A DNA stretch of 64,000 nt, from NCBI RefSeq assembly GCF_020740795.1, contig NC_067282.1, positions 18,025,172 through 18,089,171 on the forward strand, written 5' to 3'. Source of the stretch: Apus apus. Taxonomy: Eukaryota. Positions 5,668 through 63,021 of the stretch are shown here, piece after piece (position 1 is the stretch's first letter; the number at the start of each line of letters is the position of its first letter). Made by a program: the position numbers and the translations under genes. The notes below the pieces were generated by a model that was not told the DNA's origin, did no database searches, and worked only from the letters and a program-made list of their open reading frames with translations.

Positions 5668-6659
5668 CTAGGACAGTAAAAGTTTCAAAGTTCCAGGTAT
5701 TTGGTATGGATGGTTATCTGCTTTTAACACCTAGAAATTAAGCAGATAAACAAAATGAGAAATTCACAATAACAGATTCCCAGTAAAATAAAGTTACTCT
5801 CTTATAACCAGCCTACTCTATTTATACAAATATGTCACAACCTGCTTTCCCCTTGGTAATAGAAACTATTTGGACACGTAACAAATAATTTCTGTGCAGG
5901 AAGTCAATACAATCAAACTTTTATGATTTATTTGAGTGGAGCTAATACCTCAAAAATTATAAAGCTGTGTATAATATTCTCTTCAGTAGTAAAGAATTTT
6001 CTTTAAAAGCCTGCAACAAAAGAAGAGAGGTGATTTGAGAAGCTGAAAGACTTTCCACACAGGACCTTCATATTAATGCAAAGTTTCAAATATATCTATC
6101 TAAATACAACTTAAACTGCAAATATTTCATTGCAGCACTCATATTTTTCGTGCTGTACTTAAGTTTCTTGTGGAAGCTCTACAACCATGCTGCCTGTTTG
6201 CTTCTTCCTCCCAACCAGCTTCTTTTTTTAAACCCACTAGAAAAAAAGTTTGAAGACTGCAGAAGTTTCAGTGATAACCAAATCCCTGCAAGTACCATAA
6301 AATATGAATGAAGGCAGGTAGGAGACCCAAAGTGATTTTTTCACTCGGGAAGGAAAAAAGACAGAACTGCTGTCCATTACGATGTGCCAAGAGCCTGACC
6401 GCTCAGCCTTGCCACCTCCAGGCAGTCCCAGGACAATTAACTCCCATTAGGAATGTCAGGGGGACACAAGAAAGAGGCCCCTGTCAAGAGACAGAGAACC
6501 ACAGCAGCCCAGGTTCAACAGTCCTGTTGATAAGGAAGTAACTTCCTAAAGCCCTAGAGATCAGTTTCTGCCAGCTCTCACTTAATTTTCTCACTGTAAA
6601 ACTAAGTTTGAAACTCTGAGTAGGAGAAGCTGAAATTCCCTCAGGAAAATGTTAATTCA

Positions 6660-7620
6660 ACTGCCTTGTTTCGAGACGCCACGGGAAGCTTCCCAGCGCG
6701 GTTCGGGGTGCTGCACAGGCCAGCTACGGGCAAATTCAAGCCGACCGGGTTGTCCTGTCACCTTTTCGAGACCCCTTCCAAGCAGCCTGCCAGTTTAAAG
6801 CTTCCCTTCCGCTTTCGTGCCAGCCGAAAGAGCTGGCAGGGCTGCAGCCCACCCCTCTCGGGGAGGCCAGGAGAGACCAAGGGGGCCCTCCCAGAGGCCG
6901 CCGGCGGGGAGACGAGCTCCTCGGCCAACCCGCGGGGTCAGGCCCGGCACGTCCCTCCCCTCCCGGGCACGAACGAACAGCCCCCCGGGCACGAACACCC
7001 CACGTACGCCCCCGGCTCTCGCCCAGCCCCGGCCCGAGGCACCCGCACCGCACAGCCCGGACCCGCGGCTCCCGCCCAGCCCCAGCCCGAGGCACCCACA
7101 CCGCCGCCCAGGCCGCTGCCGCTGCCGCCCCGCTCCTGCGATTACAAACCTGCCGCCACCGCGCGGCCTCCCGGCGCCGCGGGCCGGCACCGCCCCGCCG
7201 CGGGGCATGCTGGCCGCTGTAGTCCCGACCCGCCGCCGTTCCCGCCCGGCTGCGGGGCGCTCCTGGCCGCTGGAACTACAGCTCCCAAGAGGCTCAGCGG
7301 CGAAAGGGCCGTTGCCGGGCAGGAAGCGCGCCCGCAGGCCCCGCGCGTTAGGGGCGGGAAGGGCGGCGGTGGCGGGGGAGCGGTTCCCTGCGGCAGCTGG
7401 GGCTGTCCCGCGGTGCGGGGCTGCTGGAGGCGGCTCCCGGGGGTTCCCGCGGCTCCGAGGGTGGCTCCCGGGGCCGGCGTTTCTCGTCGGGCGGCGCCGT
7501 TGCTGTCGGAGCTGGAAGGGCCGTCTCGGCGCGCGGAGGTTCCGGAGCCGTGAGCTGTCCCCTCAGGGCGTGCGGGTGTCTGCTGGGGTGAGGCTTTGGG
7601 CTTCTTCCCCGCTTTTATCG
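6660..7620. promoter_or_regulatory. CpG island, candidate bidirectional promoter between CENPJ (-) and PARP4 (+), with 5' non-coding first exons
   Basis: About 1 kb of very high GC and CpG density flanked by AT-rich sequence. It sits between the divergent first coding exons of CENPJ (5667..5223, minus) and PARP4 (11347.., plus). Candidate PARP4 exon-1 donors GGG|gtgagg near 7586 and GCC|gtgagc near 7549. The ORFs in the track here are GC-composition artefacts. Confidence 0.7.
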
Positions 7621-10600
7621 CGGCCGCTTGCACCCTTGTAATTCTTAAATACCTGCAGTTGTGTAAACCCAGGGCAGCCCTTTCATTTGCCTGCTGCTAG
7701 TTTTAATTTCAGGTATGTTTGTGGTTCAACCAGGCTCTTTTCTGCTAAACTGCCAACCATCTCTCCAGCACTTTTCTTTTGTCATTATTAATATATCGTC
7801 TACATTATTTTCCTCTGACTGGATTCTGCCTTAGCAGTGGGAAGCTGCCGCGCTAGGAAATAAAACTATTTGTATGGCTGCTTTTTTAAAGCATCACATT
7901 TAGTCCCTTTGACATCGTTAGTAGGAAGACGCAGCAGAGGTTTGTTTTCAGTTTATCTACACACCGGAGGCCTTACAGTACTACAGATTGTTCGTTGTCA
8001 GTTGTTGGGCAGTAAAAAAATATATTTTTTGCTCCACCTCTGTGCTAAAAATGTAATCCATATAGCCTGTGAGGCTATTGGGGCCTTACAGATGTCCACC
8101 AACATAAAACTGTAAGAATTAAACTAGTGATAGTTGTCAGCAGTTCCTGTTTTGCATAACTTCCTTATCCGGTGCTGCAACAACATGGTATTCCAGTTAT
8201 AAAAGTGTTTATCAGGAGTCAGTTAATTCTCCACACACCGCTGAAATACAATAGTTTTCTGATTTTGAATTCTGGAAGTTTATCCATTTGAAAAGAGTAA
8301 AGCCGAACACTGCTAAAATTCCTTGAGAAGTTTGGTTCTCTAGGAAAATGGGGGAGGAGGGGCTAGTGTTCAGTGGTAGCGTTATTCATCAACAATGAAA
8401 GGGAATAAAATCTTCACTCAAGGGAGAGAAAAACTGCTGCGAACAGACTTTGAACAGATTTTAGCTCCTGCTGTCAGGTATTCCAAAGTTCACTTGAGCT
8501 TTAAGAGTGGCTGTTTCCTCCTCCTCCCCAGTGCAGTGAGGGTCAGAGCTCCTCACTCTGCAGCTCTTTGCTTGGTTCATTTCTCTGACGCTTTGGTGTG
8601 TCCCTTCGGGCGTTTCACAGGAAGGCGGGAGTGCGTCCTAGCCCCTCCTACCTGCAACGCCCCGGCTTTCCACTTGTGCCTCATGCTGTTGGGGGAGAAG
8701 ACCTTTCAGGGAAGGCAGCTTCCTAAGCAGGTGAGTGTAAATACTTGGCTCCCTCACAGAAGAGGAGTGGGATCAGGGGTCATTTAATGCCTCTCAGACT
8801 CGGAGGAAATGAATCCCTCAAGCTTCCGCATTCCTTTCTGCTTACTGTACTGGCTGACCTGCGGTTTATTTACAGAGCAGTTCTAGCAATATGTTTTTTT
8901 CTCAGATCTTAGCAGCTTGATTTTCATAGGAAAATGTAATATCAAATACTTTTGTAGGGTTTTGTACCACACGCACCTACCAATTTGGGTTGCTTCTGTT
9001 GTTTTCCAGATAAAAGATGAACGTGGAGGCAGGGCTGGTGCTTGCAATTGGTTGTATTTCATTACTTTCTAATAAACTTCTTGTTTTGGCTGTGCAAATA
9101 GAGTTCATTATTTCCTCAGGACACAACCTCTGGTGATACTTTTGCAGTATCCAGAATCTGCTTTAGAGAATATATTGAGAGAATGAGTGCACACAGAACT
9201 CTAGTGAAGAGGGAGGCAGTGTCCAGATCTATACAATGGTTACTAAAGGAAGCCTTTGGCAGTGGCACATTTGCCCTTATATATGCCTCAAATTAATCTG
9301 TCTTATTTGTGACAAGATTCAAAATAAAGTTGGTAAAAGGATCTTAAAATAAGATTTTATACCACAAACTACAGCTTCTTAAAGGTACAGTTTTCCACAG
9401 AAATTAGTTGGAACAAGGCTGCATTGTAAAACACCTCAGATAGCATAGTATCCCATGAAAATCTCTCAGTTAAAACATGGAGAGTTGTTTTTTTGTGTGT
9501 GCAAAGAGTACTTTTTTGTCAAAAACAGTAATGTTAATAAAAAGCAAAAACGAGCCAGAAAATACAAGTATGTGTTACCTGATGTGCGCTTTGATCTGCT
9601 GTCTGCCTGACCTAAGTGCACATATTACCATTACAGGGTAATGAGTTCTATCAGGTTCATAGTGTAGTAGTAGATTTGGCCTTTCCTATAGATTACGTTT
9701 CTGAGATTAAATTATATAGGCATGTATAACATTGTGTCTCATAGTGTTGATTTCCCAGGTTTTCATGAAACCCCAAATTCAAAGGAATTACGTTGCTCTC
9801 TCTCATGGACTAACTACTTATTTTTTAGCAAATAATTGGAGTTATTCCATGGTAGCTGGTCATCTGATTCCTTTTTTACTGCACTGAAGAACAACTGTAC
9901 TTGCATACACTGAAAAGCCAGTAGGCCATAGAATAAGAAAATAAACGTTCCTTAAATGTATCATAGGTAATGTAATCTAAATCCCATCCCAAAATTACCT
10001 CAGGCTACTGTGTTTTGTTTTGTTTTAATCTGAAGCCTTATTGTAATCATCTGCTCTAGACTTGGGTCCACAATAAATTCATCAAACAATAATCTTAGAT
10101 TATGAAGTGCTGTTGTCAGAGCCACTTAAACATTTCTTCTGCATTGTTACTGTATTTTGGTTTATTCTCTCTCCACACTGCAGTGGAATCTTTCTGCAGG
10201 GCTGATGTAAAGGTTTTGTTGACCTTGAAAAGCTTTGGTGCAATTTGACCAATACTAATTTTTTAAGCCAGAAGAACCAATAGGGTATTTAAATTCTTTG
10301 CTTTTAGACCTTGTGAAGAAACTATTCTAATAAATGTAGCCTTAATTTGTCATTCGTAGTGCAGAAAAATGTGAAGTGGTAAATGAACGTAAGTAGTTGA
10401 AATGGTGTCTGCTCTCCTTTTTGCAGTCTCTAATGTAGATGTTGTTCATAGAAGTAAGAGGATAGGTGCTCAATCAAAATTTGCAGCCTAGGTAGGAGCT
10501 GTCATTAACTTGGAGAAAGCTAATTTTTGCTCCAGATGGTCTCCCTAAGATAGAGGGCACTTAACACCAGACATCTTTGGCTAACACAAGAACTGCTTTC

Positions 10601-11479: not shown

Positions 11480-12864
11480 GTAAGTTCTAGATTTATTTCT
11501 GAGATCTCAGTAGGAAAATATCAAGTGGTGCAAGTGTCGTAGAGTGTTAATCTTGCCATATGGAGAGAAGTAAGATCTGTAGAGATTATGTCTCTGTTCA
11601 ATACTTAAACTGAAATATTCAGTTTACATTCTTAATGCATCTGGCTCTGTAGTACTGAAATGTCACATAAAAAATCAAGAGTAATATTCTCCCTCCACAA
11701 GAGAACCAGGGAGGGTTTTTTTCCTGGATAAAATTGCCATGCTGTTTTTCTCTCTTCAACAAAGAGGGGAATCTCTGAATTAGGAGATGCATCACTGAAT
11801 TGGGTTTTGGTTATGTTATTGCTAGTGCAATTATTTGATTACTCAGGAGAAGATGGTTGTAGAGTTAGAGGTCAGTGATACTGCTGGGTTTTGTTTAAAT
11901 CCTGCATTATATTTTGAATATATATTGAACATGTAGCATGGATAAATCTAACTTCATAGTGAAGGCTTAATAACTTGTTACTTCTGCCACTTGACAGTGA
12001 CATTTATTTCCTCCTTCCCATTGCTAGTAATTAGAGCAAGCTCATAAATACTGTCATGTTAGAGTGCTTCCTTCTAATCCACTTTGGGGAGAAGGTAATG
12101 CATTTCAATTTTTTGTTGTCTCTGTATATAGTTTTTTTAATTTTGAGAATTAAGTGAGTTAATTTCTCCTTCTCTATCTTGCATAGCATTTCCCGATATA
12201 ACATTGGGTCAATTACTTCAAATCCTACTGTTACATATAATTCCCATAGGTGACTGTCATTTTACAAACATCAAAACTTGTATACACTGCCCTCAAGTGT
12301 CGCTAGTTTACATTGTGCATAACATAAGGTGTTGGCATTGAAGGAAAAAGAAGTGTTAAGAAAAGGAATATTGCAGGTACATTATTGTCTTGTTCAGAGC
12401 CCAGATGTTTCCTGGTGACTCTGACAATGCGCATCTCTTTAGGAGGGAAAGTGAAGAGTTGAAGAATAACATCAAGGTCTAGCAAGAGCAATTCAAAGGT
12501 GTGATAGAGTTCTTTGCACTGTAATTTCAGGATTCTCTAAGACATGTTGACACACCTCTTTGCAGTGGCTGTGATCTTGTAAAGAAGCAATGAGTGGACA
12601 ATAATTAAGGCTCACATTTATCCCATCAAACTGCTGATCTCCGGATATGATTTTGGGGGAAAAAGTCAGGGAAATTCCGTCATAGAAACAATAAACTTTG
12701 CTAAAAAAAACCTATTAAAAATAGCAAAACAATAGCAAATAAACTAAGAGTTAATGCAGTACAAATGTATATTAATTGAAATCTGTATTTTGAATAATTC
12801 AGTACAGTGAGAAAGATACTGCAGCACCTAAAATTTGTGATCTCTAGGATGCTGGGATATGTCC

Positions 12865-13515
12865 TTCGGTGAAGCCACTGAGGCGAGGAACACCAGAGCA
12901 AGGGATTGTGCTGGTGGACTCCTTCTGCAGAGCCGAAGCTGCAAGAAGGCCAGTGGTGTCCTGGGGTGTATTAGAAAGGGTGTGGTTAGTAGGTCAGGGG
13001 AGGTTCTCCTCCCCCTCCATTCTGCCTTGGTGAGGCTGCATCTGGAATATTGTGTCCAGTTCTGGGTCCCTCAGTTCCAGAAGGACAGGGAGTTGCTTGA
13101 AAGAGTCCAGTGCAGAGCCACAAAGATGATTAAGGGAGTGGAACATCTCCGTTATGAGGAAAGGCTGAGGGAGCTGGGTCTCTTTATCTTGGAGGAGACT
13201 GAGGGGTGACCTCATCAATGTTTACAAATATGTTAAGGGCGAGTGTCAGGAGGACAGAGCCAGGCTTTTTTCAGTGACGTCCAGTGATAGGACAAGGGGC
13301 AATGGGTGCAAAGTGGAGCATAGGAGGTTCCACGTAAACATCAGAAAATTTACTGTGAGAGTGACAGAGCACTGGAACAGGCTGCCCAGAGAGATTGTGG
13401 AGTCTCCTTCTCTGGAGACTGTTCCTGTGTGATGTGCTCTAGGTGACCCTGCCTGACAGGGGGTTGGACTAGATGATCTTTTGAGGTCCCTCCCAACCCT
13501 TAAGATTCTGTGATT
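12865..13515 (+). mobile_element. CR1 LINE 3' fragment (ORF2 C-terminus + 3' UTR)
   Basis: ORF 12859..13209 translates to the CR1 ORF2 C-terminal consensus (...[77 protein letters not shown]...). Followed by ...GGTTGGACTAGATGATCTTTTGAGGTCCCTCCCAACCC and an ATTCTGTG tail. Confidence 0.9.
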
Positions 13516-14105
13516 CTGTGAAAAGAAATGTGTCCAGCAGGGCCAGGGAAGGGATTCTGCCCCTCTGCTCTGCTCTGGTCAGACCCCACCTGGAATACTG
13601 TGTACAGTTCTGGTGCCCTCAGCACAAGAAATATATGGACCTGTTGGAAAGGGTCCAGAGAAGGGCCACCAAGATGATCCAAGGCCTGGAGCACCTCTGC
13701 TATGAAGACAAGCTGAGAGAGTTGGGGCTGTTCAGCCTGGAGAGGAGAAGGCTCCAGGGGGACCTTATAGCACCTTCCAGGACTTGAAAGGGGCTACAGG
13801 AAAGCTGAGGAGGGGTTTTCATCAGAGAAAATAGTGATCAGAGAGTATAGGGACAATGGTTTTAAACAGAGGGGAGATTTAGGTTAGATATTAGGAAGAA
13901 ATTCTTCACTATAAGGGTGGTGAGGAACTGAAATGGGTTTCCCAGGGAGGTTGTTGATGCCCCATCCCTGGAGGTTCTTAAGGCCAGGTTGGATGAGGTT
14001 TTGTGCAACCTGGTCTAGTCGTAGGGTTCCCTGCTCATGGCAGGGGGTTGGAACTTGATGATCTTTAAGGTCCTTTCCAACCTTAATGATTCTGTGATTC
14101 TATGA
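13516..14105 (+). mobile_element. Second CR1 LINE 3' fragment, abutting the first
   Basis: ORF 13518..13787 is CR1 ORF2 again ([71 protein letters not shown]). 3' end GGTTGGAACTTGATGATCTTTAAGGTCCTTTCCAACC plus TGATTCTGTGATTCTATG tail. Lies in PARP4 intron 1. Confidence 0.9.
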
Positions 14106-29027: not shown

Positions 29028-29421
29028 GTAGAGTATGCTATTTATTGTCCTTTTCCATAACTCAGCCCTGAAAAATTAATCTGTTTGTTTAATAGTGTTT
29101 TAGTCAAAATACTGTTTAGTCAAAATACTATTTAGACAAAATACTATTATTTATTTACTATTATTTACTCTTTTTCTGGAAAAGATTATGTTAATATTTT
29201 AGAAATTAAAAGTTCTACAGCTCCTTGCATGTTTCTGGAGATAACCATTTGTCAAGCACTGATGAATGTTATACCTTCATTTCTAAGGTACAAATAGAAG
29301 TTCAGGATGTCGCAGAATTCTTGATGTTTTGCAGTGCCAAGCAGTTATGCTGTTACACTTAAAGTACTGATGTTTTAATCACACTTTAACATTACAGTCA
29401 TGCAATAAATATTCTTTCTAG

Positions 29422-38374: not shown

Positions 38375-38700
38375 TTCCACTGCCTGAAGGGGCTACAGAA
38401 AAGCCAGGAAGGGACTTTTTACCAGGGTGTGTAGTGAGAAGTTGAGGGGTAATGGTTTTAAGCTGGAAGAGGGGAGATTTAGGTTAGACATTAGGAGGAA
38501 TGTCTTTAGTGTAAGGGTGGTGAGGCACTGGCACAGGTTGCCCAGGGAGGTTGTGGATGCCTCCTCCCTGGAAGTGTTCAAGGCCAGGTTGGATGGGGCT
38601 TTGAGTGGAAGGTGTCCCTGCACATGCAAGGAGTTTGGAACTAGATTATCTTGGAGGTGTCTTCCACCCCTAGCCATTCTACTGATATGCTATCAGTATA
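38375..38700 (+). mobile_element. CR1 LINE 3' fragment
   Basis: ...GGTGGTGAGGCACTGGCACAGGTTGCCCAGGGAGGTTGTGGATGCCTCCTCCCTGGAAGTGTTCAAGGCCAGGTTGGATGGGGCTTTGAGT... is the canonical CR1 ORF2 end and 3' UTR. The ORF-track entries 38393..38677 (-) and 38427..38765 (+) fall inside it. Confidence 0.9.
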
Positions 38701-54382: not shown

Positions 54383-55750
54383 GTGTGCTTTTAATAATAT
54401 CTTAGAGTGTAATGTAGCAATATAAACCTTCTCAACAAACAGAAGATCAGTTTTGTTATGTAGAGTCAGGATATGGTTGTAAAAGAGGGAATGGAAAGTA
54501 GTAATATTGGTGGAATGTGTTTTCTTGTAAGAGGATGGAGGGAGAAGGAGTGCTTTGCAAAATATGATACAAAAATTGAGAATTACAGAAAGTAGTAAAA
54601 GATATTTTATACTTCTTATTAGAATCATTGAATAATTCAGGTTGGATATGAACTCTGGAGCCCATCTCTTTCTTAAATCAGGGCCAATTCATATGGTGGC
54701 TAAATTGTTCAGGATCTTGCCCAGCTGAGTTTTAACCATCTTTAAGGATGGAGATTCGTCAGCCTCAACTTTTTACAGCCAGCCTTTGCCAGTGTCTAAT
54801 TGCACTTAGTTTAGAAATTAGGAAAACAAAATCTGTTGGATTTTTCCTTCACGACACCTGTGCCTGTTGGCCTGCACCCTTTTATAGGATTATATTTATG
54901 GCTTGGTATTCTTCACAAGCTTACACCATAAAATATTCTGGACAAACTCTTGAAATCAGTAGAGCAGATGATTCTTTACAGCCCAACTTCTACCTTATCC
55001 TTTAACCATTGGGAATGCAGGTTCTGGATTATTCTGAACCCTGCCCCCCTCACTTCTCCATGTCCCTATTCTCTATGGTCTTTTGAATATAAGGTCCCTG
55101 CATCTGGAAATTCCCTTTTTTGGGGAGTGAAGTGAACAATTATCAGCTGGCAGGAAGAAAGACAAAGGTCTTAAAAAGAAGGGTGAAGGAACAGGCCTCC
55201 AGTCAATCTGGATTGCCCCAGCCACCAACTGATTGCTTGTGCCAAAATGGGAAGCTTTACACACTTCATACTTTACAGGGCATAAAGGATAAAGAAACAG
55301 TAAGGAAAGCCCTGGAAATCTTCCTCCCTCTTCTGAAATTCCTTGACAGAGGGAAAAACTGCTTCTATAATTTTGGCTGCTCTAGTCAGGAATACAAATG
55401 AAATTGCAGGCTGCTGGATGAAAGCAATTCTACCATATGTGAATGTACAAAGGAGGAGTCAAGTTGACCTTTATGAAATGCATAGACCTTCACTTTGGTG
55501 ACTGGAATAGTGCAAATAAATGCAAGTAATAGTTATGAGTTCATATACTTCCCATCTGGAAGATTCTAAAAAGACAGGGCAGATGGTGATGTTTTCTGCA
55601 TTAGATAATATTTTATACAATCTGGATCATAGTAGTATAGAAAAATTAATCTGTCAAAGAAGTATCATTAGAAGGAGTTATTTTCTTCTAGCTCCGTTGG
55701 TAGATTTACAAGGTTTTATTATAATAATAAAATTTTGTTTCTACATACAG

Positions 55751-55901
55751 TGGTGTTCATTGGGCCTTTGAGTTGATCACAAAAGCAACAGAGTGGGTAA
55801 GAAGAGCTGAAAAACAATTTCCATCTATTTGCTATCGACTTGAACTTGGGGAAAACTGGGATTCTGCCACCAAGAAGATACTGGGTATCAAGTTTATCTA
55901 A
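55751..55901 (+). CDS. PARP4: PARP4 terminal coding exon (stop TAA 55899..55901)
   Basis: catacag|T; (S)GVHWAFELITKATEWVRRAEKQFPSICYRLELGENWDSATKKILGIKFI* vs human NIPWAFEAIKQASEWVRRTEGQYPSICPRLELGNDWDSATKQLLGLQPI. Confidence 0.93.
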
Positions 55902-56065: not shown

Positions 56066-56071
56066 AATAAA
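56066..56071 (+). other. PARP4: Candidate PARP4 polyadenylation signal (AATAAA)
   Basis: AATAAA hexamer about 165 nt downstream of the PARP4 stop. Without transcript data I cannot tell whether this is the used site or whether a longer 3' UTR runs toward 57.5 kb. Confidence 0.3.
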
Positions 56072-57844
56072 GGGCCTTGTAGTTAAGTAAGTCTTGATTT
56101 TACATATATGTACTATTTTACTTACCTGTAACTCTCTTAAAAATACCTTAATAGTTCAGGGTTTTTTACATGAATCACTTTGGTTGACTGCGTATCACAA
56201 AAGTACTTTTATAATATCTGTGTTTTGATTTCTCCTAAAAATCTTACGTACTTTTTAAACGGCAAAGCAAGCATACTTCAGTAATGCAGTTAAATATTGC
56301 AGATGTGTTGTCAGATAAAAGAATGTGATCAACAAAGAACTAATAAATGTCTTCATATCAGTGGATGGTTTTGTAATTCTTACATTGTGCCTTAAAACGC
56401 AAACAGCAAAACTATTATCTCCTGCACTGCTTTTGTTATCAGTCATCGGTCAATTTGTGAAGACATAGGTCAGTTTTGTTACAAGGAATGAGTTGTTTTG
56501 TGTGGGTTTTTTTTCCTATTACTCTGTATTCTGATTTCATTCTGACAACCTAAGTGATAAGTTTTATTGTATACTGGGCCAAACACTGAAACCTATAAAC
56601 AAAACCAGATTAAAAGGGATTTATTTCAATTTAATGGGCTTTTTCACACATTATCTCTTCTAAATGAAGGAGCTGCACAGAATCATGCTTTGGTACTTGG
56701 TGATGTGAGGCAATGTAGCTTGAGAGGTAGCAGGACTGCACTGAGGTGGGATCCCGTGTGCACAGAACATGCTCTACGCTGGTTTGTCCAGCCAATGGAA
56801 ACACTGGGAAGCAGGAAGTTCCACAGCCAGCAGAGGGAATGTGTTACACTGCCCTTGAAAACAATACTCCCCAGCAGTTACAGGGAAGGGTTGGAAGAGG
56901 TTACTAAGGAAAATTCTGGAATTTCTTTCGTAAATGTTTTCCTGATAATTTTAAGCAAGCATCTCCCAAGGATGGAGTAGATGCAGTGGATCTTGCAGAG
57001 GAGGTTGCTACGACAGGTATCCTGAGGTCCTGTTTCCAAAGGGCTCCGAATCCCAGTCTTCATGTGTGCAGTAATACTGGCTCTTTTTAGTAAATAATAC
57101 AAAGGAAAGATTTGTACTACATTTCCTGCTTGAAAAGAGCTAGGATGTGGGTTTCTTAAGAACTAAAGAGACTCCTTAATGTACAGTGATAAAGGAGCTT
57201 CTGAATCTGCTGTTGAAGTCTTTGTAAGGTCAATGGCTGCATTACTAGAGTTACCTTAGAAAGTAAGTGCTGGCAAAAAATATGATTAAAAGAAACAATT
57301 TATTTTTTTTTCACTGCAGTTAATTATGCCATAAAATATGTAACTATATAAAAAGTGAACTATAAAAATTGTGTTTTCACTGTTGTGAAACAGTGTACCT
57401 ACCCCCATACAGGTATGTGCAGTGATTACACATTCACACTAAAACCTGAGATTTGAATTCTTTAAGAAATCCTTTCTAAGATACAATGAATTAATACTGT
57501 GGCTCTAGCAAAGGCAATTAAATAGGCCAGTTGGGTGGGGTTTATTCTTCTTATCTCCTGCATGTTCTGTAAGAGGAGCTGTGCTTGCCTACAGGCGAGT
57601 TTCTTAACATACAAATTCTATGAAATTTACAAGGATTTTTTTTCCTAACGAGAAACCCCAGCGGGGACTCGTCCAGGGGGGTCCATGTACATCCTACCTC
57701 TGCGTTTCCCCTAAATCTCACCCAGCTGAGGGCACTTCGTACCCGGGTATTCCGCACCTTCCTTGCACGTGGGAAAGCCGAGCCCGCCTGGGCACCGCGT
57801 CAACGGCCTCGGGGGCTCCAGTCCCCGCACGCCACTGCCTTCAG

Positions 57845-58050
57845 GCCCCCTGACCAGGCCCCGCACGCCCCTGACCAGACCCTGCACGGCCTGACGCGGC
57901 CCCGCACGCCCCCTGACCAGGCCCCGCACGCCCCCTGACCAGGCCCCGCACGCCCCTGACCAGGCCCCGCACGCCCCATGACCAGGCCCCGCACGCCCCT
58001 GACCAGGCCCCGCACGCCCCTGACCAGGCCCCGCACGGCCTGACGCGGCG
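57845..58050. repeat. Tandem minisatellite, about 10 copies of a 21-22 bp unit GACCAGGCCCCGCACGCCCCT (C-rich on +, G-rich on -)
   Basis: Seen directly in the sequence. Near-identical units with a few variants (GACCAGACCCTGCACGGCCTGACGCGG...). The minus strand reads GGGGCGTGCGGGGCCTGGTCAGGGGCGTGCGGGGCC..., i.e. repeated G4/G3 runs. Confidence 0.9.
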
Positions 58051-58223
58051 CGCGCCGCCAGCCCCTCCCGCTGCGGGCACGGAGGCTGCGGGCTGAGGCC
58101 CCGCCCCCTTACGTCACGGGCTGGCCGAGCGCCGATTGGCTGCGGCGCCGCCTCGCGCCCGCCTCGCGCGGCCGCGGATGTCGCAGCCGCCGTTCCCCGT
58201 CGTCGTTTGAAATCCGGCCCAAG

Positions 58224-58478
58224 ATGGCGGCGGCGGCGGCGGGCGGGAGCGGGGCTGAGGCGGCGGCGGGCAGGCCGGGGGGGGCGGGGGAGGAGGAGGA
58301 GGAGGCGGCGGCCGTGGCGGGGGAGGATGAGGAGGACGGGGAGGCCGGCGGCGGCGGGGCTGGCAAGGCGGCAGCGGCTGGCGGGGAGGTCGGCGGCGGC
58401 GGTGAGAGCGAAGAGGAGGAGGATGAGGAGGAGGACGTGTTCGAAGTGGAGAAGATCCTCGACGTGAAGACCGAGGGG
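58224..58478 (+). CDS. MPHOSPH8: MPHOSPH8 (MPP8) exon 1 coding part (ATG 58224)
   Basis: MAAAAAGGSGAEAAAGRPGGAGEEEEEAAAVAGEDEEDGEAGGGGAGKAAAAGGEVGGGGESEEEEDEEEDVFEVEKILDVKTEG, ending with donor GGG|gtgagt. The C-terminal part matches human MPP8 ...EEEVFEVEKILDMKTEGGK and joins in frame to the chromodomain exon. Confidence 0.8.
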
Positions 58479-58579
58479 GTGAGTGCGCGGCGCGGCGGCT
58501 GGCAGTGCGGCGGCCCCGGCCGCTCTCCTGGCTCCGCGGCGGGGCCTGCAGGGCGGCGGCGGGGCCGGCGGCGGCGGGG

Positions 58580-58650
58580 CCGGCTGCCCCGTGCCTGGGG
58601 CTGCCCCGTGCCCGGGGGCTGCCCCGTGCCTGGGGGCTGCCCCGTGCCGC
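58580..58650 (+). repeat. Tandem repeat, 4 copies of about 20-21 bp GGCTGCCCCGTGCCTGGGG in MPHOSPH8 intron 1
   Basis: Seen directly: cggctgccccgtgcctggggctgccccgtgcccgggggctgccccgtgcctgggggctgccccgtgccg. Confidence 0.85.
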
Positions 58651-60759
58651 GTTTCGCTGCTCCCCGGGGAGGCTCCGCAGCCCGGCCGGGAGCGGTGCTC
58701 AGCCCTGCGCTGGCCCCAGGGCGCTGGGCCGGCCGCTGCTGCTCCCTCGCCGGAGTCCTGCGGGCACAGGCTGCTGCAGGGGAAGGTTTTCCTGCGCGGT
58801 TCGTGTCTGCCTGGCCAAGAACCGTGCAGAAACAGTAATTCCGTTATAATTGTCGTTTAAAGCACGGCGTGTGTAATTTTGCAGGCAAGCTTTTCGTGTC
58901 TTACAGTTCTGACTAAAGACTAAATCTGGAGTACCTTTACTAAACTATTTTGTGTGCGTTGTGAAACTGCTCTTATGGCTGAATTGCAGGAGTTTGTTGA
59001 TGTAAAGTGAGTGTAGCAATGGGCAGGATTTATGACGGAGAACTCGGAGATGGTTTCAGGGTATGTTCAGAGAGACTATGTTTACTGGCTTGTAAAACGT
59101 GAATATAAAACATGCTTAAAATAAAAGCAGCTTATCTTCCAATAAAATAACTAGCTGTAGTGCTCCTTAGACAGATATATCTTCGTTTCTTTCTTTGAAA
59201 GCAGCCTAGACTGGTTGAAGTTCTGTAGTTTTCTAAACCTGAAATACAAAAAAATTAATATAGTCTGTGTGGTTTTTTTATTCTTTTGTTTCCAAACATT
59301 GTTTATTTTAATTAATCTATGGGTTTTGGTTTAGGCTTCAGTCAGGTACATGATGGTATAGAATTTTGCCTGTTTAGTCTAAAACATCAGGCTTGGAGAC
59401 CCTTTAGATCAGTAATTTCTTACGTATTTATGATGGTGTCATGATTAAGTTGAAGTATCTTGATGGCTTAAGAGTGTTACAGAGGGAGAGCCACACCTTC
59501 CACGCCCTTGCAAGGGATAGGAGGGTATGCCGAGTACCACACCTTAAAAATGTCTTTGGTCTGTTCTGGTGTCTTATGCCCTCTCCTTTTATCATCGTCC
59601 TTCTCCTTCAAGCAGCACATTCTGCAGCAGGTTCTGAGCTGTATGCACTTTAGATTTCCAGGCTGTCACTGCAGTGAGCTCTGCTGTATGGATGTGCCTC
59701 TCCCAGGGCATGTTGCTTGTGGCTCCGTGGCATTTGCTCCAGTTGCACAAGGTCACCTTTCCATTGCTCTTAAGTGAGGGCCATGCTCCTGTGCTTCAAA
59801 AATACAGGGCAAGACAGATACTCAAAGACAGATATGCAGTCCTAACTTCCAAAATGGCTGAAAAAATCTGTGTTATATTCTGTGAACTATATTTTAAGTA
59901 GTCCTGCTTTATACTAGTGGTTCCCAACTTGCAGATTTTCGACTCCGATACAAAGTCCAGGCAGGTGCACTGAGTCGGCCACTGTCCAGCCAGTCAGTGT
60001 GTTCCTGTGTCACAGCTGCAGAAGCTGGAGAGCACTGCACAGAGAAGCTCTTGTCATTTGCAGTCCTGATGTCGCCTGAGCTGGTAGGAGTGGCAGCAAG
60101 AGAGAGACATGGCATTCTTGGGATAGGATTGGCTAGGGAGTTAGACCTGCAGATAAATAGAACATTATTGCTCTCTTAAGTAGGAGATGTTAAAGTTTGG
60201 ACATGTTTCCTGTAAGAATATCTAGAAAGCCTATCATACTACACTGAAGTTCTTCTGAAACAAGAGGTTCCATTGCAAATAATGACATTCCCCAGTGGAG
60301 ATGGGTAACCTTAACTCTGCTGTTAAATGACATGGTGATACCCCTTTTCATAGGATTTGTTTCTAGCCCATCACTAGTTCTCATAGAAGCTACAGCAGTA
60401 TAAAAATGTTTGGAAGTGGTCTTTTTTTTTGTAAGCGATACAGAAGAAAGAAATAACAATGTTGACTAAAATAATATTGACAGGAGAGTATAAGGCTGTG
60501 TGTGTATCCTTAGTATGATGATTATTCTTCTGTCTTCACTTAAGCTGCATTTCTGTATCATTGTCTGTGTACTGGATATAGAATCACTCGGCAGTCAAAT
60601 ATTCTTACGTTTACAGTAGAATTTATCCAGCTTTCTCAGTTAATTAAAAAAGGACTTGTAACTTGTTTTGCACCAACTTTAGAAGGATGTAGCAGTAACT
60701 GTGCAGCTAATTGAAATCCTGCATCTGAAATGGTATAACACTGTACCACCAGACAGGTG

Positions 60760-62865: not shown

Positions 62866-63021
62866 GGTGAAATTTTCTACAAAGTCCGGTGGAAAGGATA
62901 CACCTCTGATGATGATACCTGGGAGCCAGAGGTTCATTTAGAAGACTGCAAAGAAGTGCTGCTCGAATTCAGAAAAAAAATTGTGGACAATAAGCCTAAA
63001 CCTGTTAAAAAAGACATACAG
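62866..63021 (+). CDS. MPHOSPH8: MPHOSPH8 exon 2 (chromodomain)
   Basis: ttcttacag|GGT; GEIFYKVRWKGYTSDDDTWEPEVHLEDCKEVLLEFRKKIVDNKPKPVKKDIQ vs human MPP8 GKVLYKVRWKGYTSDDDTWEPEIHLEDCKEVLLEFRKKIAENKAKAVRKDIQ; donor CAG|gtgagt. Confidence 0.95.

Follow-up and report, generated by a model that had tools for sequence, protein, structure and literature searches.

The question raised by this locus is whether a GC-rich tandem repeat lying immediately upstream of the CpG-island promoter of MPHOSPH8 takes part in the regulation of that gene or is a repeat without conserved function. In the window, by which is meant the whole 64-kb stretch of DNA analysed, TRF placed at 57847-58044 a tandem repeat with a period of 21, 9.4 copies, 90% matches, 3% indels and a score of 313. 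It is the best-scoring tandem repeat across the window, the runner-up reaching a score of 113. When the array is split at its TGAC anchors, ten units of 20-22 bp each are obtained over 57851-58040, which bears out the approximately ten tandem 21-bp copies of the original prediction. Six of these ten units contain the exact 21-mer consensus TGACCAGGCCCCGCACGCCCC, followed in three of the six by one additional base (C, C or A), and the end units are more divergent. A search for TGACCAGGCCCCGCACGCCCC allowing up to three mismatches returned eight matches, all within the array, and none in 100 dinucleotide shuffles. With head-to-tail copies of a unit in the 10-100-bp range, far above chance, the array is a minisatellite. 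Its parts are the following.

57847-58044, C-rich on the + strand and G-rich on the minus strand: minisatellite core, consensus TGACCAGGCCCCGCACGCCCC on the + strand in 9.4 copies (TRF, unit list and pattern search).
57822-57850, no strand: degenerate 5' proto-unit TCCCCGCACGCCACTGCCTTCAGGCCCCC, a 73%-identity copy in the repeat family.
58041-58062, no strand: degenerate 3' terminal unit TGACGCGGCGCGCGCCGCC... (unit list and repeat-family comparison).

The central units are alike except for the CCCC/CCCCC length and one A variant, and the difference between the 21-bp and the 22-bp units consists solely of this homopolymer change. The alternation of the two unit lengths is reflected in a 43-bp period, which is an alternative TRF reading of the same array. 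Two 54-nt blocks (57847-57900 and 57996-58049), placed 149 bp apart, are 96% identical, and the variant junction GCACGGCCTGACGCGGC recurs at 57884-57900, being also part of the paired block at 57996-58049; a higher-order duplication of 149 bp inside the array can therefore be recognized. Identical central units, degenerate edges and such a duplication are typical of a recently expanding minisatellite. The array has a GC content of 0.81 and a CpG o/e of 0.76, is located inside the CpG island and lies 174-379 bp upstream of the MPHOSPH8 ATG (58224), in agreement with the 170-380 bp given earlier.

The genes on both sides of the array are represented by the following exons.

55731-55901, + strand: last coding exon of PARP4, ending in ...GENWDSATKKILGIKFI*, with a TAA stop at 55899-55901.
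58224-58478, + strand: coding exon 1 of MPHOSPH8 (MAAAAAGGSG...DVFEVEKILDVKTEG, then a GT donor), encoding an N-terminus rich in Gly, Ala and Glu and the first part of the chromodomain.
62866-63021 (boundaries approximate), + strand: exon 2 of MPHOSPH8, with the chromodomain sequence GEIFYKVRWKGYTSDDDTWEPEVHLEDCKEVLLEFRKK... (PDB match).

The joined peptide of exons 1 and 2 matched the human MPP8 chromodomain structures 9h77, 3qo2 and 3lwe with E of about 1e-33, the CDYL and HP1 chromodomains following far behind. In a large protein collection the nearest proteins are fragments of bird MPP8 (92-97% identity), and the window is therefore avian. Upstream of MPHOSPH8 and also on the + strand, BRCT, PARP catalytic, VIT and VWA exons follow each other in that order, which is the known architecture of PARP4. 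The C-terminal exon presumably belongs to the same gene, given this domain order and the similarity to human PARP4. Both gene names proposed earlier are thus upheld by the MPP8 chromodomain match (E=1e-33) and by the ordered BRCT, PARP, VIT and VWA exons. Candidate AATAAA signals were found after the PARP4 stop at 56066 and 56342. The spacer had been described as extending for 2.3 kb from the PARP4 3' end to the MPHOSPH8 TSS; the tail-to-head order is correct, but 2.3 kb is the distance from the PARP4 stop codon to the MPHOSPH8 ATG and not from poly(A) site to TSS. The same tail-to-head order was found in parrot, in passerine and in contig L001. An Rfam scan of 56500-59500 gave no matches at E <=1.

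A second CpG island (6600-7800; GC up to 0.80, CpG o/e up to 0.94) is placed about 4 kb upstream of the exon carrying the PARP4 ATG (approximately 11.35 kb) and is presumably the PARP4 promoter or a 5' UTR exon. It has its own imperfect C-rich repeat of 24-29 bp (7020-7114) and several G4Hunter matches on both strands. Another GC-rich minisatellite is found in MPHOSPH8 intron 1 at 58582-58648, with an 18-bp unit GGCTGCCCCGTGCCCGGG repeated 3.8 times at 94% matches. In addition, some frames in PARP4 introns (12841-13784 and 38388-38640) resemble CR1-type LINE fragments.

The orthologous promoters of eight other birds were recovered via exact-protein look-ups, from the Logan contigs L001, L002 and L003 and from the B10K assemblies of Probosciger (L005), Heliornis (L013), Turnix (L014), Galbula (L015) and Bucco (L016). 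The 21-bp array was found in none of these eight promoters. For every species compared, BLAST alignments against the window break off by about 57730 and are taken up again at 58054-58098, so that the only part which cannot be aligned between species is the array together with its immediate GC-rich flanks. Moreover, the strand skew of the array region is unmatched in the eight other promoters, as follows.

Window, region -400 to -150: GC skew -0.37, mean G4Hunter -1.24.
Other birds, region -400 to -150: GC skew -0.19 to +0.07, mean G4Hunter -0.44 to +0.17.

The array is therefore not a conserved element at an orthologous position, whereas the core promoter adjacent to it is conserved, and the earlier suggestion of a regulatory role, if understood as that of a conserved element, is not supported, both array and skew being absent in eight of eight other birds. 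The non-coding identity between the window and parrot, passerine, finfoot, buttonquail, jacamar and puffbird is 70-76%, equal to the identity among those orders. A fast-evolving PARP4 exon used as query had a single match, of 39% identity. The array could be shared across a whole order outside the eight birds compared. Copies from the same or a sister species were sought with the read-through ORF of exon 1, which gave no exact match, and with the minus-strand ORF encoded by the array, which gave none in a protein search. A metagenome scan with a 20-mer of the unit returned seven single-copy matches and no arrays; these matches were taken as chance, from other organisms. A TE-borne origin of the array was also considered and rejected, as both flanks grade into orthologous sequence and proto-units are present at both edges.

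On the 3' side the repeat stops where the conserved part of the promoter begins. The approximately 150 bp before the ATG are strongly conserved in eight of the eight other bird promoters, according to the alignments, and the elements recognized in the window are listed here.

58075-58235, + strand: MPHOSPH8 core promoter, outside the repeat, of which it sets the 3' boundary (alignments, BLAST restarts at 58054-58098, motif positions).
Within 58075-58235, + strand: core-promoter block GGGCACGGAGG.
58099-58107, core promoter: GC box.
58109-58116, core promoter: CRE-like TTACGTCA.
58134-58140, core promoter: inverted CCAAT (GATTGGC).
Within 58075-58235, + strand: core-promoter elements GTCGCAGCC and GTCGTTTGAAA.
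58221-58231, core promoter: YY1-like AAGATGGCGGC over the ATG.

The motifs common to the bird promoters are GGGCACGRAGG, the GC box, the CRE-like TKMCGTCA, the inverted CCAAT, GTCGCAGCC, GTCGTTTGAAA and the YY1-like CCAARATGGCGGC over the start codon. The typical positions of CCAAT and YY1 elements point to a TSS near 58195-58215, which would therefore place the array between about -150 and -360. Heliornis, Galbula and Bucco have at about -190 a further, distal CCAAT box, CCATTGGCTGCCGC, which aligns with the last degenerate unit of the array. The idea that the array replaced a distal CCAAT box was rejected, since L001, Turnix and L003 are also without that box. The Gly/Ala/Glu low-complexity N-terminus encoded by MPHOSPH8 exon 1 varies in length and sequence between birds. 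The G skew of exon 1 on the + strand (+0.46 to +0.52) is kept in nine of nine species, the window having +0.52.

In Heliornis fulica (L013, 2440-2560) a (GGCT)n stretch followed by (GGGCTGAC)x7 was found in the same relative place upstream of the core promoter. This sequence is unrelated to the array and is G-rich on the + strand, that is, on the opposite strand to the array. It is an independent repeat birth at the same site, and the site itself is therefore repeat-prone. The Daphoenositta ortholog (L004) presents at 9934-9982 an N gap covering the core promoter together with the 5' portion of exon 1, which fits the known dropout of GC-rich bird promoters from short-read assemblies. An insertion of about 600 bp, possibly a transposable-element fragment, lies just upstream in the same ortholog (9140-9720).

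The gap in Daphoenositta, placed exactly where the array would be, raises the question of whether the array, or at least its copy number and its alternation of 21 and 22 bp, is an artefact of a very GC-rich region. In birds, promoters rich in GC are prone to errors and are frequently lacking in assemblies (PMC9516821, PMC7757076). Moreover, the two unit lengths differ only by CCCC or CCCCC, which could be due to homopolymer errors. Nevertheless the window has no Ns, the units carry distinct substitutions (the A variant, ACCCTG and GCGG variants) and a structured higher-order duplication, which collapse or stutter would not yield, and the flanks of the array run seamlessly into conserved sequence on both sides. 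An artefact is accordingly considered highly improbable.

The best explanation of the array is that of a young, lineage-specific GC-rich minisatellite which expanded in place and has no conserved function, a reading to which we assign a probability of roughly 70%. Slippage or unequal exchange would have multiplied a local segment of 21 bp where the MPHOSPH8 CpG-island promoter has its upstream edge. The expansion appears recent and local because the array is missing from the other orders and an independent repeat occupies the same site in Heliornis. In addition, all the repeats of the window scoring at least 60 are found in its two CpG islands (about 4% of the window), with the exception of an AT-rich 16-bp repeat at 29099-29148, and this clustering supports an expansion in place at the island shore. 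Birds are without PRDM9 and their recombination hotspots are found at CpG-island promoters (bioRxiv 10.1101/023101); such hotspots may have been the driver, favouring repeat turnover and GC enrichment. Both the G4- and i-motif-prone composition and the seven in-phase CACGCCC / GCGTG motifs would be by-products of repeating a C-rich unit, and the array would be nearly neutral. Its young age and its polymorphism are likewise presumed. The lack of conservation may be compatible with a species-specific function, and in humans long-unit tandem repeats at promoters are frequently QTLs for expression or methylation (PMC4857002). At most, the array would modify the strength or the methylation of the promoter in a species-specific way, and its length may vary.

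With a 25-nt window, G4Hunter gave values of -1.5 to -2.04 for the minus strand along 57845-58034; the G4 prediction proposed earlier as a check thus reaches beyond the customary threshold of |1.5|. The G strand is represented by this oligo.

G-strand oligo of the array: GGGGCGTGCGGGGCCTGGTCAGGGGCGTGCGGGG.

At least 20 consecutive G-tracts had been claimed for this strand. The recurrent G-runs are there, but they amount to 17 tracts of at least three G (16 of at least four G) and are interrupted by one break of 17 nt, the successive loops between runs being 8, 5, 8, 5, 9, 5, 8, 5, 8, 5, 8, 5, 17, 8, 5 and 8 nt. The regularity of the tracts is due to the repetition of one C-rich unit. No canonical G3+N1-7 motif was found on the minus strand of the array, because every second loop has 8-9 nt, and four non-overlapping G4 motifs are obtained when loops of up to 12 nt are permitted. 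A two-unit oligo of 34 nt prefers the quadruplex to the hairpin (-20.7 vs -13.3 kcal/mol), as calculated by ViennaRNA with RNA and not DNA parameters. For the full array the G4 option adds 2.8 kcal/mol over a hairpin-rich fold, compared with 26 +/- 12 in dinucleotide shuffles (ViennaRNA, RNA parameters). The real array places 30 G's in quadruplexes against a mean of 20.7 in the shuffles, and the shuffles gain more energy from it. As ssDNA the G strand folds somewhat more stably than shuffles (z = -3.0), which counts against the young-minisatellite reading. Exon 1 of the same CpG island reaches on its + strand a G4Hunter maximum of 2.6, above that of the array. The sole canonical G4 motif of this island is held by MPHOSPH8 exon 1. 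The earlier statement that the array is G4-capable is therefore sustained by G4Hunter (to -2.04) and weakened by the lack of canonical motifs and by the equal or greater G4 propensity of the shuffles and of exon 1. The G4 potential of the array is real, modest and largely compositional.

The motif content of the array has also to be considered. It contains seven CACGCCC / GCGTG and eight TGACC motifs, and the neighbouring promoter segments contain none. CACGCCC we take to be an SP/KLF-like GT-box core and GCGTG a bHLH-PAS-type site, both as near-consensus matches only. A period of 21 bp corresponds to two helical turns, so the seven CACGCCC motifs are disposed on one face of the DNA. The abundance of CACGCCC and TGACC is not independent evidence of function, because repeating one C-rich unit yields such motifs automatically.

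These motifs, together with the G4 or i-motif potential, could make the array an ILPR-like promoter VNTR which tunes MPHOSPH8 transcription in this species through SP/KLF-like or bHLH-PAS-type sites or through the structures themselves. Precedents for such elements are the ILPR (PMC11336075) and human promoter repeats (PMC4857002). The position of the array agrees with this, at less than 400 bp from the probable TSS and inside the CpG island, and so do the tandem motifs missing from the neighbouring segments, whose helical phasing could support cooperative factor binding. The G4Hunter values down to -2.0 and the preference of the two-unit oligo for the quadruplex point in the same direction. 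However, the core promoter stays intact in the eight other birds that are missing the array, the motifs are only near-consensus, the 5-8-5 nt loops exceed the canonical limit and hairpins rival the quadruplex almost equally in the full array. A functional promoter VNTR is for these reasons doubtful, although of the alternatives it has the best claim. In a more specific form, the array would be a tuning knob for MPHOSPH8, clade-specific and of variable length, that sets promoter strength or CpG-island methylation through the seven phased SP/KLF-like sites or through a G4/i-motif on the upstream-antisense strand, and this seems very unlikely. The product of MPHOSPH8, MPP8, is a subunit of the HUSH complex. 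If such a tuning knob existed, copy-number alleles would shift HUSH dosage, and hence retroelement silencing, in this bird lineage.

It had also been suggested that the array could act as a pause, termination or insulator element, shielding the MPHOSPH8 promoter from PARP4 read-through. The tail-to-head order of the two genes is real and is kept in parrot, passerine and L001, and in short tandem intergenic regions G-rich sequences are enriched near downstream promoters (PMC8972054). It is, however, on the transcribed sense strand that these G-rich motifs are enriched, rather than their C-rich complements (PMC8972054); pausing at R-loops likewise requires the G's to be on the non-template strand (PMC3145960), and closeness to the poly(A) site matters for pause elements (PMC8972054, in its discussion of Gromak et al.). 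Read in the + direction, the array presents a C-rich sense strand (skew -0.37), its G-rich strand being the template of PARP4 read-through, and it starts about 1.5-1.8 kb past the two candidate AATAAA signals (56066 and 56342), at least 1.5 kb from either. The MAZ motif GGGGAGGGG (G5AG5) was searched in the array with no match. The array consequently presents none of the traits of MAZ-type pause or termination elements (sense-strand G, a G5AG5-like motif, proximity to poly(A)). The CTCF consensus CCASYAGRKGGCRSY, searched in the array with up to two mismatches, gave no match either. The same gene order exists, moreover, in other birds without the array. All this goes against the suggestion, and a pause, termination or insulator function has very little probability.

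About 110 bp upstream of the array, at 57722-57736 on the + strand, the sequence CCAGCTGAGGGCACT matches the CTCF consensus CCASYAGRKGGCRSY at 14 of 15 positions, the one mismatch affecting an A that is usually important. Probosciger and Daphoenositta have an identical CCAGCTGAGGG, and in other birds the block can still be recognised. Should there be an insulator in the PARP4-MPHOSPH8 spacer, the CCAGCTGAGGGCACT site would be a better candidate than the array.

The young minisatellite proposed here can be compared with several known systems. The closest is the ILPR (INS VNTR), which is also a GC-rich minisatellite located a few hundred bp upstream of a TSS (363 bp in the ILPR). Both have two runs of four G per unit, two units giving a four-tract G4, and a complement able to form an i-motif (PMC11336075). 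The ILPR unit is, however, of 14 bp, with 3-nt loops, a canonical motif and a Tm of about 76 C, whereas the array unit is of 21 bp with loops of 5 and 8 nt. The ILPR has demonstrated polymorphism, Pur-1 binding and reporter effects, whereas for the array these would be predictions; the array is absent from eight of eight other bird orthologs. CEB1 and CEB25 share with it the GC-rich tandem arrangement and the strand-asymmetric G runs, and their G4 potential has been linked to repeat instability (PMC2673046, PMC3486850, PMC5491262). They differ in their subtelomeric location, in their longer units, in arrays that are much larger and in not being promoter elements; their instability is experimental, whereas that of the array is presumed.

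Repeats located less than 1 kb from a TSS, in a CpG-rich context and with a unit of at least 4 bp are the class most often tied to expression or methylation variation (PMC4857002), and the array resembles the eQTL/mQTL promoter repeats of Quilez et al. 2016 in these three respects. The likeness to the MAZ-type G-rich motifs of short tandem intergenic regions lies in the placement between two same-strand genes and near the downstream promoter (PMC8972054). In contrast to these motifs, the array has its G's on the strand antisense to both genes, which are spaced about 2 kb apart and not a few hundred bp, and there is no G5AG5. The array is a further instance of a well-known kind, the GC-rich promoter minisatellite with G4 potential.

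Beyond this locus the array matters little, and long-read bird assemblies reveal such repeats which short-read ones miss. Within the locus it marks the upstream limit of the conserved avian MPHOSPH8 core promoter. Together with the repeat of Heliornis it indicates that repeats arise recurrently in the 5' shore of this CpG island, which fits recombination-hotspot, GC-biased turnover at bird promoters. If its copy number were variable and linked to expression, the array would be of modest interest as a natural modifier of a HUSH component.
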